Virus genome (UHGV): UHGV-1656500
Strand: one strand, 5' to 3'
DNA from: a virus
DNA: 11,226 bases
Of this stretch, positions 989-8,000 are shown one piece after another. Position numbers and translations under genes: made by a program. Below the pieces are notes generated by a model. It saw nothing but the letters and a program-made list of their open reading frames with translations, made no database searches and had not been told where the DNA came from. Within the stretch, counting starts at the first letter, position 1. Every line of letters starts with the position of its first letter.

Positions 989-1369
989 ATGGCGAACGGG
1001 TGGAGTATCGACCCCTCTGTTTTTATGAATCAGGTTGAGGAAGACGTTGGTAAAAAATTGCGTTTTATCTCGCTTCAGTTGCTGAATGAAATTGTCTCTC
1101 GCTCTCCGGTCGATACCGGGCGTTTCCGTGCGAATAATCAGGTGAGTATCGGCTCTCCTGAATACGGCACCACCGATACAACGGATAAAAATGGATCGGC
1201 GACTTTGCAGCAAGGTAGCGCTGTTATCGCGCAGGGAAAACCTTATTCAGTCATCTACATTCAGAATAACCTCCCATACGCGGAACCTCTGGAGAATGGT
1301 CACTCGCAGCAGGCTCCGGCAGGTATCTACGCTGTCTCATTCCACGGTGTAACACAGGCCTACAAATGA
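989..1369 (+). CDS. HK97 gp10-like head-tail joining (neck) protein
   Basis: 126 aa, GGAGGG RBS, start 1 nt after the upstream stop. Contains SPVDTGRFRANN, which resembles the conserved VDTGRLR motif I recall for the HK97 gp10 family. Confidence 0.6.
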   Translation: MANGWSIDPSVFMNQVEEDVGKKLRFISLQLLNEIVSRSPVDTGRFRANNQVSIGSPEYGTTDTTDKNGSATLQQGSAVIAQGKPYSVIYIQNNLPYAEPLENGHSQQAPAGIYAVSFHGVTQAYK

Positions 1370-1758
1370 CCCTCACAGAAATTCGTAACGCTGTCATTGC
1401 TCGCATGACGGCGCAGACGGCTATTGCCTCTGATGCTGTGGATTATCCAAATGGGCCGATATTTGACCCGGCGGGGAAATCTATCTGGGCGCGATTGACG
1501 AATATTCCCGGACTGGCTGGCGCTAATGAAATCGGCGGTGGTCCGGTTGTTCACCGTACCGGCGTACTCATCATTCAGATATTCGTTCCGGTTGGTAGCG
1601 GCTCTCTGCTGATAAACCAGACCGCCGACAAACTACGCGAGTTATTCGAATTCCAGGATGACGGAAAACTCAGTTATTTCGCCGTATCCGCTGTTCCTGC
1701 TGGTGAAACAGATGGCTGGTCTCAGCTCAATCTACAAATTCCTTACCGCGCTCTGTAG
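1366..1758 (+). CDS. Putative tail completion / tail terminator protein
   Basis: 130 aa. ATG at 1366 overlaps the upstream stop (ATGA). Lies immediately upstream of the major tail gene. Assignment by synteny and size. Confidence 0.5.
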   Translation: MTLTEIRNAVIARMTAQTAIASDAVDYPNGPIFDPAGKSIWARLTNIPGLAGANEIGGGPVVHRTGVLIIQIFVPVGSGSLLINQTADKLRELFEFQDDGKLSYFAVSAVPAGETDGWSQLNLQIPYRAL

Positions 1759-1784: not shown

Positions 1785-2705
1785 ATGTCGAGCGGCGCTA
1801 AGGTACTCTCGGCCTTTATACGGGAAACTACGGTAGGTGTAACTCCGGCAGGAGCGTGGAGTCTGATAAAGCGCTCCGCGTGGGGGGTGAAACCGACCCA
1901 AAACACAAATGACAATGACGAAATCGGTGGCACCCGCATGGCGCAGGGTATGTCGATGGGCACCGTTGATGTCGGTGGCGATGTGGCGACGAAGTTTCGC
2001 TGGGGACAGCATGATGCGTTTCTGGCGTCCTGCTTCGGTGCTGACTGGGTTGGCGATAGCCTGACGATGGGTAATGAACGTATCACGTTCTCACTCGCAA
2101 CGTATGCTTCCGATGTTGGTATCGCCTCTATCGTTCGCGGCGCGCAGGTAAGCGTGTTCCAGTTGGAGGTTCCTAACGACGGTGATGTTACCGCGACGAT
2201 CACTTTCGCCGGGCTGGGCTGGGATTCGAAAGCTGATGACACCAGTTATATCGAAGGAACACCTGCGGATAACTCTGGCGAGCTGCGTTACTCGTTCAAA
2301 GAGGTCACGGCAATCAACCTGAACGGCATCGACGGCGGTGATGGTTTCTGTATCGACACCTTCAACATCCAGTTCGACAACAACGTTCAGACCCAGCGTT
2401 GTATCGGCACCGGCTCACCATATGCCGGGGCCAATATTCCGACTACGTTCACGCCGTCAGGTTCAATCACATTATCCTGGTCTAAAGCTGCGTGGGAGGT
2501 TTGGAGCAAAACACTGACCGGGGCGACGGTGCCGTTTAGCTTCACCCTGGCGAACGACGAAGGGCAGTACACTTTCAACTTCCCGAAAGTACAGGTCGCA
2601 GGCGACTGGCCGGATGGGGGCAATACCGACATTATCCAGGTTCAACTCGATATCACTGCGGCAGACGAGTCACCGACCATTACCCGCACAGCTGCGGGCA
2701 GTTAA
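1785..2705 (+). CDS. Major tail (tube) protein
   Basis: 306 aa with a strong GGAGG RBS 8 nt upstream. Lies between the tail-terminator gene and the chaperone/tape-measure genes. Ser/Thr/Gly-rich composition is consistent with a tail tube protein. Synteny-based call. Confidence 0.6.
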   Translation: MSSGAKVLSAFIRETTVGVTPAGAWSLIKRSAWGVKPTQNTNDNDEIGGTRMAQGMSMGTVDVGGDVATKFRWGQHDAFLASCFGADWVGDSLTMGNERITFSLATYASDVGIASIVRGAQVSVFQLEVPNDGDVTATITFAGLGWDSKADDTSYIEGTPADNSGELRYSFKEVTAINLNGIDGGDGFCIDTFNIQFDNNVQTQRCIGTGSPYAGANIPTTFTPSGSITLSWSKAAWEVWSKTLTGATVPFSFTLANDEGQYTFNFPKVQVAGDWPDGGNTDIIQVQLDITAADESPTITRTAAGS

Positions 2706-2765
2706 TTTCCCTTGCCCGTTCCGCTCTGCATGGCGGCGCGGGCTTTTTTCATGCAGGAGTTTCGA

Positions 2766-3233
2766 ATGATTATCCTCAACCCACGAATTGATGTTGGTGG
2801 CGAGCGCTGGTTTACGCCGCTGAAAGATCTCAAACCCATTGAAGGCCTAAAGCTGCTCGTCAGCAGCATTGATAACGACCAGTATCGCTCGCGTAATGCG
2901 CTTATACGCCGCCACATTGAAAAAATGGATGCCAGTTACCAGGTGGGAACCAGCGAATTTAGCCTGTCTGCGGTCGGGGAAATTGACTCTGCCGATGATC
3001 TTCTGATCGACAACTGCGCGCGTTACCTGCTGAAAGACTGGAAGGGCGTTGGTGAGCTTGTTGAAGGCGAAGAAGTTCCGATTGAGTACACACCTGAACG
3101 CGGCGCTGCACTTCTGAAACAGGAACCAGCAATTTACTGGCAAATTCTGGCTGAAGCCGCCAGCATCGCCCAGGGCAAAGAGCAGCAGAAGCAGGAAACC
3201 GTAAAAAAGCCATCGAAGCGCAAAAGTGGCTGA
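2766..3233 (+). CDS. Tail assembly chaperone (lambda gpG-like), short zero-frame product
   Basis: ATG at 2766 with AGGAG 8 nt upstream (the track ORF starts further up at 2712 with no RBS). 155 aa, acidic, immediately upstream of the tape measure gene. Contains the slippery heptamer near its 3' end. Confidence 0.7.
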   Translation: MIILNPRIDVGGERWFTPLKDLKPIEGLKLLVSSIDNDQYRSRNALIRRHIEKMDASYQVGTSEFSLSAVGEIDSADDLLIDNCARYLLKDWKGVGELVEGEEVPIEYTPERGAALLKQEPAIYWQILAEAASIAQGKEQQKQETVKKPSKRKSG

Positions 3234-3553
3234 GTGAATTCGGTGGGGAGCAGGGTGAAAAGGCAAAGTGGCGAAGGGAGAAATTAAAACTCCCGCCAAT
3301 TCCCGAGCCTGAAATTGACGGCGTGACAGGGGAAATCCTCAACGCTTACTCCGTTATTTCCCGCTCCCGGCTGTATGCCGGGATGGCTGGTGCGCCACTG
3401 CCAATCTCACTTCATGATATTGAGCGCTTTCTTTCTGCACGTCCCGTCCTCATTGATCGCGATGAATTTGACGCGGCGATATTTGCCCTCGATGACGCAT
3501 GGCGTGAGAAGTGGGCGCAGGAACAGAAAAAACACGGCAAACAGAAACAATAA
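2766..3553 (+). CDS. Tail assembly chaperone frameshift fusion (gpGT-like), made by a -1 ribosomal slip at 3203-3209; about 262 aa
   Basis: The -1 frame is open from the slippery site to TAA at 3551-3553, checked codon by codon (...ETVKK|AIEAQKWLSEFGGEQGEK...KQKQ*). The annotated 76-aa ORF at 3323-3553 is the tail of this frame. Confidence 0.6.
3203..3209 (+). promoter_or_regulatory. Programmed -1 ribosomal frameshift slippery heptamer A_AAA_AAG
   Basis: In the chaperone frame the codons are GTA AAA AAG CCA, so A-AAA-AAG fits the X_XXY_YYZ rule. It lies 22 nt before the zero-frame stop, and the -1 frame stays open for another 114 codons. Confidence 0.65.
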
Positions 3554-3554
3554 G

Positions 3555-3577
3555 CCCGGCATGTCCGGGTATTTTTA
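3555..3577 (+). terminator. Weak hairpin plus T-run between the chaperone genes and the tape measure gene (possible attenuating terminator)
   Basis: cccgg-catgt-ccggg 5-bp stem followed by tattttta. Short stem, so low confidence. Confidence 0.25.
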
Positions 3578-3592
3578 TGCCCGGAGATCGCA

Positions 3593-5728
3593 ATGTCAGA
3601 ACAGACATCCCGCCTCGCTGTCATTATTGACAGCACCGGCGCAGAAAAAAATGCTGAAAGCCTGACCAGCGCCCTTCACGGGCTTACCGAGTGGGGGCAG
3701 AAAGCAGCGGCCAGCGCCGGGAAGGTAACGAAGGCGACCGAAGAAGAATCCGCTGCTTTATCGGAACTTCTGGACCGCATTGATCCGGTTAACGCGGCTC
3801 TGAATAAACTGGATAAACAACAGCAACAACTCGCGAAATTCAAGTCGAAAGGCATGCTGGACGATGAGACCTTTGATGTCTATTCGAAAAAAATCGAAGA
3901 GGCTCGTAATCGTCTCACCGGGTTTTCAGAGCAACTGAAAAATACTGGCATGTCAGCAAAGCAAACTGCTTTTGCGATGCGCATGATCCCTGCTCAGATG
4001 ACCGACATCGTCGTGGGTCTGTCTACCGGGCAAAGTCCGTTCATGGTGCTGATGCAGCAGGGCGGTCAGTTAAAAGATATGTTCGGTGGCATCGGACCTG
4101 CGATTAAAGGCGTTAGCTCCTATGTGATGGGCCTGATCAATCCTTTCACGCTGGCGGCTGCTGCGGTCGGCGTGCTGGGTGTGGCGTACTACAAAGGCAC
4201 GCAGGAACAGGACGCTTTCAATAAATCACTCATCCTGACGGGTAACCAGGTAGGGAAAACATCTGGTCAACTGGCGGACATTGCCGCGCGCGCTGGTGTA
4301 GCGGCGAACTCAACCACTGGCAAAGCGGCATCGGCGCTAAACCTACTGGTGGAATCTGGAAAGGTTGCCGGTGACTCGCTTGAGCGCGTGACCACTGCCG
4401 TTGTTAAAACGAGTGAAGCCACTGGTATTGCGACCGATAAACTGGTGGACGATTTCAACAAAATTGCCGCCGATCCGGTTGCGGCAATTACCAAACTGAA
4501 CGACCAGTACCACTTCCTTACGCTGGCAACTTACAACCAGATTAAGGCCCTCCAGGATGAAGGGAATCAGCAGGAAGCGGCGCGCGTTGCTACTGATGCT
4601 TACGCCACCACCATGCAGCAGCGTGCCGCAGATATTCAGGATAATCTCGGTTATCTCGAAAAGGCATGGAACGGACTCACCGGCGCAGCAAAAGGTGCAT
4701 GGGATGCAATGCTGGGCGTTGGGCGCGAGCAGTCTCTTGAACAACGACTGGCTGATGCGACTAAAAAGGCAAATGATGCACGCGGCAAAGCCGTGGGTAA
4801 TATTTTCGGTGTGCCAGGGTGGCAAACTGAAGCGGCAGCAGCGGCTAATTTTCTGCAAAGTGCTATCGACCTGCAAGGCGACCTTACAAAAGCTGTCGCG
4901 GCTGGCAGAGAAGAGCAGGATAAGGCAATTAAAATACAGCAGGAAGCTGATCGCGTTAACCAGCAGTTCCTGTCGAATGCTGATAAGCGAAACAAGGCGA
5001 TTCAGCAGCAGAAGAAATTCCTTGATGCCGGGGCCATCAGTGCAGATCAGTACGCGAAAAATATCGCGCGCATCAATGAAATGTACAAAGACCCTAAATC
5101 GCCAACAGCACCGAAGGGAAAAGCATATAGCGAAGATGCAGCGACACGACTGCTGGATCAGATTAACCAGCAGACATCCGCTATGCAGTCCCAGCTTGAC
5201 GCCAGCGATAAGCTCACCAGCGCCACCCAGGCGCGAGTGAAATTTGAACAGCAGATAGCTGACCTCAAATCGAAAACGCAGCTCACCGCCGATCAAAAAT
5301 CGCTTTTGTCCCGCTCTGAAGAAATTATTCAGGCCTACAAACGACAGGAGGAGTTGCAAAACTCCGTTAAAACGCTCGACGATTACCGGAAAATGCAGGA
5401 GCAGGTTAAAGCGAAGGATGAGCAGCAGAATGATTTGCTTCGCGAACGGCTTGCGCTGCTGGAAAAAGCAAAAGCCACAGGGAAGCTGGCGCCGGGGGAA
5501 TACGAGCAAACCCGATCTGATATTTACAAAAACACTCCAGCGGAGTTGCCTTCTTCAGTGAAGAGTGTGGTTGGCAACCTGTCACCGACTGGCGGCCAGT
5601 TATCCGGCACGTTCGGCGGTATGCAACAGCAGTACATTCAGCTCGATCAGGCGCAACAGCAGTTACAGACGTGGTTGCGGCATATGCCCAGGCTGCGCAA
5701 ATCACCACGGAAGGCGAAGCGCGCATGA
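3593..5728 (+). CDS. Tail tape measure protein, N-terminal ~690-aa part (frame interrupted near 5660-5675)
   Basis: ATG at 3593 with GGAG 6 nt upstream. Long Ala/Gln/Lys-rich, coiled-coil-like translation with a hydrophobic Gly-rich segment (VVGLSTGQSPFMVLMQQGG...AAAVGVLGVAYY), as is typical of tape measure proteins. The final ~20 residues of this frame (TWLRHMPRLRKSPRKAKRA) look non-native. Confidence 0.8.
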   Translation: MSEQTSRLAVIIDSTGAEKNAESLTSALHGLTEWGQKAAASAGKVTKATEEESAALSELLDRIDPVNAALNKLDKQQQQLAKFKSKGMLDDETFDVYSKKIEEARNRLTGFSEQLKNTGMSAKQTAFAMRMIPAQMTDIVVGLSTGQSPFMVLMQQGGQLKDMFGGIGPAIKGVSSYVMGLINPFTLAAAAVGVLGVAYYKGTQEQDAFNKSLILTGNQVGKTSGQLADIAARAGVAANSTTGKAASALNLLVESGKVAGDSLERVTTAVVKTSEATGIATDKLVDDFNKIAADPVAAITKLNDQYHFLTLATYNQIKALQDEGNQQEAARVATDAYATTMQQRAADIQDNLGYLEKAWNGLTGAAKGAWDAMLGVGREQSLEQRLADATKKANDARGKAVGNIFGVPGWQTEAAAAANFLQSAIDLQGDLTKAVAAGREEQDKAIKIQQEADRVNQQFLSNADKRNKAIQQQKKFLDAGAISADQYAKNIARINEMYKDPKSPTAPKGKAYSEDAATRLLDQINQQTSAMQSQLDASDKLTSATQARVKFEQQIADLKSKTQLTADQKSLLSRSEEIIQAYKRQEELQNSVKTLDDYRKMQEQVKAKDEQQNDLLRERLALLEKAKATGKLAPGEYEQTRSDIYKNTPAELPSSVKSVVGNLSPTGGQLSGTFGGMQQQYIQLDQAQQQLQTWLRHMPRLRKSPRKAKRA

Positions 5729-6459
5729 CGGCAATTCGCCAGCAGGCTGCGCAGGCCAACCAGGTAATCGAATCCCAGAAAAACGAAATCATCACCAGTG
5801 CGACGCAAACCATGATCGACAGTGGTTTGCAGATTCTGGCGACTGGTTTCGGGGAGCAATCCGGGATTTATAAAGCGGCGTTCGCTGCCAGCAAGGCATT
5901 CGCTATTGCACAGTCTCTGGTTTCGATCCAGCAGGGGATAGCAATGGCGGCGGCTAACCCGTTCCCGTACAACATCGCTGCGATGGCATCCGTTGCAGCG
6001 GCGACGGCGAGCATCGTTTCTAATATCGCAGCTGTTGCGGATGTTGGTTTTGCTGTCGGTGGTTTTACGGGCCCGGGCGGAAAATACCAGCCCGCCGGGA
6101 TAGTGCATAAAGGCGAGTATGTTTTTGACCAGGCTGCAACCAACCGGATAGGCGTCTCGAACCTTGAGGCGCTGCGCAATGGTGGTTCTCTGGATGCAAC
6201 GCTGAGCAAGCCCGGTTTCGGTACGGGGGCGCAGAACGTCAATAACAACAGTAATTCAACTGTATTCAGCCCCCAGATTCAGCAGGACTTCCATATTCAG
6301 CAGGGTGTAACGCCTGAGCAGATGGATATGTCTCTCGCCAACACCGCCAAAAAGGCGACGACGGACGCAGTTGATCAGGTGGCGAACCAGATTGTCCGGG
6401 GTAACGGGAAAGTGGGTAACGCAATGCGAGGAACGTACACCGGAAGGAGAACGACCTGA
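5671..6459 (+). CDS. Tail tape measure protein, C-terminal ~262-aa part in the -1 frame relative to the upstream part
   Basis: This frame is open from 5521 and its first start codon is GTG at 5671. The translation (VVAAYAQAAQITTEGEARMTAIRQQAAQANQ...) continues the tape-measure-like composition. The stop overlaps the next gene start (TGATG). Confidence 0.7.
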   Translation: MVAAYAQAAQITTEGEARMTAIRQQAAQANQVIESQKNEIITSATQTMIDSGLQILATGFGEQSGIYKAAFAASKAFAIAQSLVSIQQGIAMAAANPFPYNIAAMASVAAATASIVSNIAAVADVGFAVGGFTGPGGKYQPAGIVHKGEYVFDQAATNRIGVSNLEALRNGGSLDATLSKPGFGTGAQNVNNNSNSTVFSPQIQQDFHIQQGVTPEQMDMSLANTAKKATTDAVDQVANQIVRGNGKVGNAMRGTYTGRRTT

Positions 6460-7408: not shown

Positions 7409-7466
7409 TGTTCAGCCATAAATTACTTGATAAGATAAGGTTCTTCTTATTGACAGGGATAGAAAA

Positions 7467-7979
7467 GTGAAACGATTTTTGCTGGTTTCTGCCGTAATTT
7501 TACTGGCCGGATGTTCGGCTAAATACAATACGAACAATATTCAGAGCAACACTGAGCAGTTAGTCAAAGATGCTCCAGTTGCTATTGCTATGCCATCTGA
7601 TGGGGTATATGAAACCCGCACATATGCTGGCTCTGGAAATTCGACAGCGACTGCATTAAAAGCTGCTTTTTTGCGACATTCAGATAACGTAGCGATTTAC
7701 GCTGATTGTGAAGATGTTACTTGTCTGAAAAATAATCATACAATCCATCATGGATACTACGTTGTTCCTCAGATATTGCATTGGGAGGACAGGGCTACTG
7801 AGTGGTCAGGAATTCCAGATAAAATTGAAGTGAAAATTACAATTTATAATGCAGAATCCAACAATCGGATTGCCTCAACGATTATTAGCGGGAAAAGTAA
7901 GTGGGCAACATTTGGTGGTGATCATCCGCAAGACTTGTTGCCAGAGCCAGTAAACTCGTACATCTCCAGCCTGTATTGA
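7467..7979 (+). CDS. Lipoprotein encoded by an AT-rich moron; function unknown
   Basis: GTG start with AGGGA 7 nt upstream. The N-terminus MKRFLLVSAVILLAGCSA is a textbook type II signal peptide with lipobox LAGC (Cys16). GC is roughly 30-38% against roughly 55-65% in the flanking tail genes, counted by eye on a few 60-nt lines. A strong terminator follows. Confidence 0.7.
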   Translation: MKRFLLVSAVILLAGCSAKYNTNNIQSNTEQLVKDAPVAIAMPSDGVYETRTYAGSGNSTATALKAAFLRHSDNVAIYADCEDVTCLKNNHTIHHGYYVVPQILHWEDRATEWSGIPDKIEVKITIYNAESNNRIASTIISGKSKWATFGGDHPQDLLPEPVNSYISSLY

Positions 7980-8000
7980 ACCGTCAGTAAACTACATTTC

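Follow-up and report, generated by a model that had tools for sequence, protein, structure and literature searches.

A probable programmed −1 ribosomal frameshift at A_AAA_AAG in a tail assembly chaperone gene from a siphovirus-type Citrobacter prophage

The stretch of DNA considered here, 11,226 nucleotides (nt) of the virus genome UHGV-1656500 and referred to in its full length as the window, comes from a Citrobacter prophage. Protein G, which is encoded in it, is 93-98% identical to proteins of four Citrobacter species, and chromosomal loci, including that on the 5.0-Mb chromosome CP166747.1, are 98.7% identical to the window at the DNA level. Along the window the tail terminator gene is followed by the tail tube gene, by a pair of open reading frames (ORFs) called here G and T, and by the tape measure gene (Table 1). 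Two overlapping ORFs placed between the tube and tape measure genes are characteristic of the G/GT class of tail assembly chaperone (TAC) genes, in which a −1 frameshift near the end of G produces the longer fusion GT, and it is this pair that our analysis addresses.

Near the end of G, the zero-frame codons of the ORF starting at ATG 2766 are ...ACC GTA AAA AAG CCA TCG AAG CGC AAA AGT GGC TGA. This reading places AAAAAAG at 3203-3209 in the exact A_AAA_AAG register of the 155-codon ORF, as the initial annotation had proposed. The same annotation put the heptamer 22 nt before the stop codon, which is correct as the offset from 3209 to 3231, whereas the gap between them is 21 nt (seven codons, PSKRKSG). 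When entered with GCC at 3209, the −1 frame is open for 114 further codons, up to TAA 3551-3553, and the junction peptide is indeed the one claimed, ...ETVKK-AIEAQK...; the predicted fusion has 262 amino acids (aa) and the junction ...ETVKK-AIEAQKWLSEFGG.... An in-register slip site close to the 3′ end of G, together with a long open −1 frame, is a further property of the G/GT class. The count of the bare heptamer is unremarkable by itself, as AAAAAAG occurs five times in the window against 1.84 expected, and at least five copies were found in 8 of 200 shuffled sequences. Among the 13 plus-strand genes, ten in-register heptamers of the X_XXY_YYZ type are present, and only that at 3203-3209 leads into a long −1 frame (114 codons, compared with 1-11 for the others).

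A chance origin of the site can be ruled out because, of the 97 related loci that we collected from phage records, from one genome per species and from IMG/VR contigs, all but one (96) carry the heptamer in register; these represent prophages of Citrobacter, Escherichia/Shigella, Salmonella and Klebsiella, and a bat-faeces phage. In one of the loci (L031) the zero-frame stop lies further downstream than in the others. The heptamer is kept also in a separately fetched prophage of Providencia rettgeri (GTA AAA AAG CAC TAG), the G protein of which is only 50% identical. Searches at the protein level were needed, since megablast of positions 2600-3700 gave no match in phages or complete E. coli genomes. 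When the fusion was compared by tblastn with phage genomes, 19 records were found, from phages of E. coli, Salmonella, Klebsiella and Erwinia and from a bat-faeces phage, and the match was split into two pieces lying in two frames. No joined coding sequence (CDS) was annotated in the phage records of this set that we inspected. When viral contigs were scanned again with the family alignment, the close relatives already known came back and diversity did not increase.

The pattern of substitutions around the heptamer was analysed in 34 unique junction sequences. On its 5′ side, 14 of 25 variable columns fall on third positions of zero-frame codons, while on its 3′ side 27 of 48 fall on third positions of −1-frame codons; the periodicity of substitutions changes from one frame to the other at the heptamer. 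The stretch TAAAAAAG does not vary at all in these sequences, and all three synonymous positions within the heptamer are invariant, whereas 14 of the 15 other upstream third-codon positions are variable. Past the heptamer, the zero-frame tail differs among relatives, being either P* or PSKRKSG* (the asterisk denoting the stop), and the −1-frame protein shows conservation immediately past the slip, from its first codon onwards. Conservation from that very codon extends to Pseudomonas phage phiPSA1 (32% identity), where the junction is ETLEK-AIARFQWESEWAG. The slip site and the two-frame layout are thus kept among homologues, and the downstream ORF has no conserved start of its own, again as in other G/GT genes.

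The last point deserves attention, as T might be regarded as a small gene in its own right, with initiation at GTG 3323 or at an ATG in codon 58 of T and with the heptamer being incidental. An ORF of 76 aa opening with GTG does exist mechanically at 3323-3553; T is annotated as an orphan in each of the 19 related phage records as well as in many genomes, and methionine is found at codon 58 in 42 of the 45 unique relatives in which start codons were surveyed. However, no conserved start codon precedes codon 58 among these relatives, a start at codon 38 (which is GTG 3323 in the window) occurs in just 23 of them, and the −1 frame of the window holds no ATG, GTG or TTG between the upstream stop and GTG 3323. 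The 38 codons separating the heptamer from GTG 3323 are devoid of a start, yet they are conserved as protein and show third-position periodicity of the −1 frame. Pairing with the anti-Shine-Dalgarno (anti-SD) sequence at GTG 3323 amounts to −1.9 kcal/mol, whereas G reaches −6.9, the tape measure gene −6.6 and the tube gene −10.6 kcal/mol. The starts deposited for the orphan are placed at non-homologous codons (14, 38, 43 or 48), and the resulting database entries, 70-128 aa long, are all called 'hypothetical protein' and belong to no Pfam family. With starts not conserved before codon 58 and only weak SD pairing at GTG 3323, ribosomes can get to the first 38-58 codons of T, which are conserved, only by way of G. 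Judged from these sequence features, GTG 3323 is probably not a real start. Invariance of the three synonymous positions of the heptamer likewise disagrees with its being incidental, and we consider an independent gene very unlikely.

Frames could also be joined in the messenger RNA (mRNA) rather than on the ribosome. Insertion of one additional A by RNA polymerase in the A6 run would bring G and T into one frame, and realignment of this kind during transcription is known to give rise to trans-frame products (PMC5009743). The run is homopolymeric, and an extra A gives the identical protein, as can be seen in a genome of Providencia stuartii (CP114582.1, near position 1770 of the locus). Its sequence there is ATAAAAAAAGTC, that is A7G instead of A6G, so that G and T occupy one frame and only the fusion ...ETIKKVIEAQKWL..., exactly the predicted frameshift product, is encoded; the genome may belong to a mutant that makes GT alone, or the extra A may be a homopolymer sequencing error. 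Slippage of bacterial RNA polymerase, however, is described as productive at runs of about 8-9 or more A or T residues, and six A fall below this length. Moreover, the conserved feature is a phased heptamer ending in G and not the length of the run, and distant relatives keep A_AAG only (GCA_AAG or G_GAA_AAG, with runs of 3-4 A), which fits slippage of the lysine transfer RNA (tRNA-Lys) and not that of polymerase. We find polymerase slippage still less probable than separate translation of T. The least credible of the alternatives, to our mind, is that G and T are halves of one ancestral gene which was split by a frameshift mutation, with no recoding involved. The tape measure gene of the window does carry a frameshifting 13-nt deletion, and single-frame versions of G-T are present in databases (clusters P0018 and P0001). 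But these versions are rare, each of the two clusters being found on one contig only; one version is due to the extra A of P. stuartii and another, L104, proved to be an artefact of an ambiguous base when considered as a one-frame fusion. The two-frame layout with the heptamer, on the other hand, recurs in nearly all of the related loci, across several genera and including phages with complete genomes, and random mutation would neither recur in this manner nor keep both frames under purifying selection.

Comparisons with protein families bear on the function of the pair. G alone matches phrog_313, annotated as 'Tail assembly chaperone', with E 2.4e-45 over profile positions 22-154 of 258, and the fused GT matches it with E 5.7e-47 over positions 22-254. 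For phrog_8233, also a TAC family, the score rises from 18 to 35 bits on the fusion (positions 72-256 of 271). This end-to-end fit implies that some members of these two families must already have been deposited in the fused form. The −1 extension matches phrog_1189 (E 2.6e-33), a family of 86 positions to which no function is assigned there. Scans of local copies of Pfam and NCBIfam revealed no family for G, T or GT; in precomputed annotation, PF27119 Phage_YdaY is assigned to the exact G protein and to all 89 homologues. Several phage records label G as 'putative protein YdaY', others as hypothetical. The family is named after ydaY of the Rac prophage remnant of E. coli K-12, and a literature search on ydaY returned nothing on its function.

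Structures of G and T were modelled separately. The best match of the G model in BFVD was a 262-aa protein of Acinetobacter phage Loki (E 1.2e-4), and other matches came from Xanthomonas phage Suba, CcrColossus (268 aa), Salmonella phage 9NA and Escherichia phage Seurat. The T model (AF2, pLDDT 81.9) matched the same fused TACs, namely those of CcrColossus (TMq 0.69) and Loki (TMq 0.65). A sequence search of the PDB with the GT profile yielded noise only (E at least 0.27). Pell et al. are said to have described, in 2013, a 'spiral' fold for the TAC of HK97 (2OB9). Position, PHROG profile and predicted fold together indicate that proteins of the YdaY family are likely to be tail assembly chaperones.

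Taken together, gene order, conserved register, the switch of periodicity, the lack of a conserved −1 start and the TAC profiles support the proposal that the conserved programmed frameshift of tail assembly chaperones operates at this locus. We therefore hold it very probable that a programmed −1 ribosomal frameshift takes place in the TAC gene of this siphovirus-type Citrobacter prophage. According to this mechanism, most ribosomes would translate G (2766-3233, 155 aa) and end at TGA 3231. A minority would slip back by one base with tRNA-Lys on A_AAA_AAG (3203-3209), use G3209 a second time to begin the codon GCC, and go on in the −1 frame to TAA 3551, giving GT of 262 aa with the junction ...ETVKK-AIEAQKW.... 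As in lambda, the tape measure protein would be covered by G together with the G moiety of GT, while the T part would recruit the tail tube protein; G and GT would both be needed for tail assembly and be absent from the finished virion. The heptamer A_AAA_AAG is highly shift-prone owing to the single tRNA-Lys of E. coli (PMC5009743), and E. coli genes contain it in phase far less often than expected (z −10.1; PMC4066793, supplement). In E. coli reporters, AAAAAAG gave 0.29% frameshifting with no stimulator, 4.3% with the stimulators of IS911 and 39% with the IS3 pseudoknot, and the respective values for GGGAAAG, the heptamer of lambda, were 0.28%, 3.8% and 43% (PMC4066793, supplement). Judging by these values, slipping in the prophage probably has an efficiency that lies somewhere from a fraction of a percent to a few percent.

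The initial annotation had suggested a search for a stimulatory structure in 3210-3260, and no support for it was obtained: the predicted folding energy of −12.1 kcal/mol corresponds to z −1.30 and was equalled by 19 of 200 shuffles. The longer segment 3210-3310 folds to −29 kcal/mol (z −0.94). Neither of two hairpins could be accepted as a stimulator; that at 3210-3246 (−12.1 kcal/mol) is no better than shuffles, follows the heptamer without a spacer and is not preserved across the alignment, and that formed by GGGAG...CUCCC (about 3275-3298) is 66 nt away on the 3′ side and missing from the E. coli group. The consensus fold of ten sequences (−7.4 kcal/mol) contained no compensatory pairs, and no Rfam match was found, either locally at E up to 10 or window-wide at the gathering score. 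On the 5′ side, CAGGA is kept in most relatives and replaced by AAAGA in the Flyfo phage; its conservation is uninformative because the sequence encodes Gln-Glu/Asp. Directly 3′ of the heptamer, CC is present in nearly all sequences. The signal thus seems to consist of the heptamer and its 3′ CC context, with no strong stimulator. A cassette of the dnaX type combines the heptamer with an SD about 10 nt upstream and a downstream stem-loop; the window has the heptamer and, in place of the SD, only AGGA 6 nt upstream, and the downstream region has z values of −0.9 and −1.3, no covarying pairs and no match in Rfam.

Several observations qualify the assignment made above. As far as sequence comparison can tell, there is no homology to lambda G/T: hhalign of an eight-sequence GT profile against lambda GT gave a probability of 0.06% (E 0.78), and no Pfam match was found at E up to 0.01. 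The link to lambda G/T is therefore one of position, mechanism and weak fold similarity, and not of sequence homology. With dnaX the site appears to share the heptamer only, AGGA being situated 6 nt away upstream. Finally, two ORFs, 3593-5728 (711 aa) and 5671-6459 (262 aa), stand in place of an intact tape measure gene, as 13 nt (GCAGGCTCAGGAA) are missing at about 5677 in comparison with the 959-aa gene of the 98.7%-identical chromosomal copies. This particular prophage copy may be defective on account of the missing 13 nt, or the assembly may be in error.

A separate problem is how much of the heptamer is essential in more distant members of the family. In Erwinia phage Gungnir39 (L003, 1975-1995) the canonical heptamer is lost, GCA_AAG standing directly before TAA, and the T domain is kept; in Pseudomonas phages phiPSA1 (L009) and Aurca01 (L004), G_GAA_AAG takes the place of the canonical heptamer and the T domain is kept as well. 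Only the tetramer A_AAG is common to these distant relatives and to the enterobacterial sites. At GCA_AAG and G_GAA_AAG the P-site tRNA would be unable to re-pair, yet the −1 T domain is conserved from the same junction, which raises the possibility of an A_AAG-only core. We put forward tentatively, as possible rather than probable, that in Phage_YdaY chaperones the conserved recoding core is the A_AAG tetramer alone, read by tRNA-Lys with no RNA stimulator. Were this true, the family would form a natural series from two-tRNA to single-tRNA −1 frameshifting (with slippage in the A site only, possibly assisted by the stop codon) which leads to the same product throughout.

In practical terms, the recommendation to annotate a joined CDS instead of an orphan ORF was right, and the feature should read join(2766..3209,3209..3553), 262 aa. 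In all 19 related phage records, as in protein databases, the T part figures as an orphan of 70-128 aa, called 'hypothetical protein' and begun at an arbitrary codon. A joined CDS gives both G and T a function and removes a spurious gene; it also brings one more family under the G/GT rule and ties the Pfam family Phage_YdaY to tail assembly chaperones. Nothing new is learnt about the mechanism of frameshifting, and the value of the result lies mainly in annotation.

Table 1. Coordinates of the chaperone pair, its putative signals and the neighbouring tail genes in the window
Feature	Position	Strand	Basis and remarks
Tail terminator gene	1366-1758	+	PF13554
Tail tube (major tail) gene	1785-2705	+	PF18906 Phage_tube_2, E 5.7e-31; phrog_290; directly 5′ of the chaperone pair
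SD sequence CAGGAG for the start of G	2754-2759	+	Read from sequence; anti-SD duplex −6.9 kcal/mol, like other true starts in the window
G, tail assembly chaperone, zero-frame product of 155 aa	2766-3233	+	ATG 2766 to TGA 3231-3233
AGGA, SD-like tetramer 6 nt 5′ of the heptamer	3193-3196	+	Read from sequence; candidate, possible weak stimulator
Slippery heptamer A_AAA_AAG, probable −1 frameshift site	3203-3209	+	In register; conserved in relatives
T extension, −1 frame, 114 codons and TAA 3551-3553	3209-3553	+	Open frame; phrog_1189; −1-frame third-position periodicity
GTG opening the mechanical 'orphan' ORF 3323-3553 (76 aa)	3323-3325	+	Probably no real start
Terminator-like hairpin and T-run between the GT stop, which it adjoins, and the tape measure gene	3554-3578	+	Consensus scan; putative function
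Tape measure gene, presumed client of G/GT	3593-6459	+	PF06791 TMP_2 (E 1e-81), PF24622 TMP_4; split 3593-5728 / 5671-6459

Some further features of the neighbourhood may be mentioned. Terminator-like hairpins with T-runs occur not only at 3554-3570, after the GT stop; they are found also at 2683-2698 and 2725-2742, directly after the tail tube gene, and the consensus scan counted seven terminator-like sites in 2500-3800 against 2.1 expected. The hairpins after the tube gene and the GT stop may attenuate transcription and hence set expression ratios within the tail operon. Further along, a segment of 639 bp (7409-8047) with a 170-aa ORF (7467-7979) lies between tail genes and is missing from an otherwise collinear relative (L099); the counterpart of this ORF in three other relatives (L100-L102) matches PF16105 DUF4823, and the segment looks like an insertion of the moron type. 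At the other end, positions 1-603, which hold most of ORF 192-602 (with a weak match to DnaT_2), do not align with these four relatives (L099-L102), otherwise 97-99% identical; this edge is a mosaic boundary in the head-tail connector region.

It remains to compare the locus with systems already described. The initial annotation likened the site to that of E. coli dnaX; this holds for the heptamer, which is identical, and for the tRNA-Lys mechanism (PMC5009743), and does not hold for the rest of the cassette, as neither a significant or conserved downstream structure nor an Rfam match is found in the window. In dnaX, which carries a strong upstream SD and a downstream stem-loop, shifting amounts to approximately 50% and gives a shorter product, whereas the frameshift product of the window would be the longer one. 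Architecture and length of the fused protein (262 aa) are shared with the gp12/gp13 pair of phage Loki, a putative TAC in which a −1 frameshift was predicted at AAAAAAC adjoining the gp12 stop (PMC5313236); unlike the window site, that motif ends in C and not G, sequence identity is about 20%, and the Loki frameshift is known as a prediction only.

Frameshifting of the G/GT type is widely conserved in long-tailed double-stranded DNA phages despite low sequence similarity (PMC5009743). In lambda, the G:GT ratio is 30:1, and the G part binds the tape measure protein while the T part binds the major tail protein, according to the summary in PMC5009743 of the lambda work (Levin 1993; Xu, Hendrix and Duda 2004, 2013, 2014). 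The lambda pair likewise stands between the major tail and tape measure genes, and its −1 shift occurs near the 3′ end of G. Its slip site, G_GGA_AAG, is 15 nt before the G stop and that of the window, A_AAA_AAG, 21 nt before; lambda GT has 279 aa, compared with 262 aa in the window, and the T extensions are similar in size. In both, the A-site codon is AAG, read by tRNA-Lys, and since the reporter values given above for AAAAAAG and GGGAAAG match, the intrinsic shiftiness of the window heptamer equals that of lambda. The pair of the window has no detectable sequence similarity to lambda G/GT and matches no Pfam family of the lambda type. A TAC frameshift on A_AAA_AAG itself is already on record in E. 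coli prophages: ECs1801, a TAC of a prophage of E. coli O157 Sakai, belongs to cluster A_AAA_AAG_25 and is classed as 'true' −1 programmed ribosomal frameshifting (PMC4066793, Table S4). The likeness to ECs1801 follows from this listing, which credits its cluster with a conserved downstream structure (N/Y); in the window no such structure is supported. Set beside these systems, the pair described here is a generally unannotated member of the known G/GT class.
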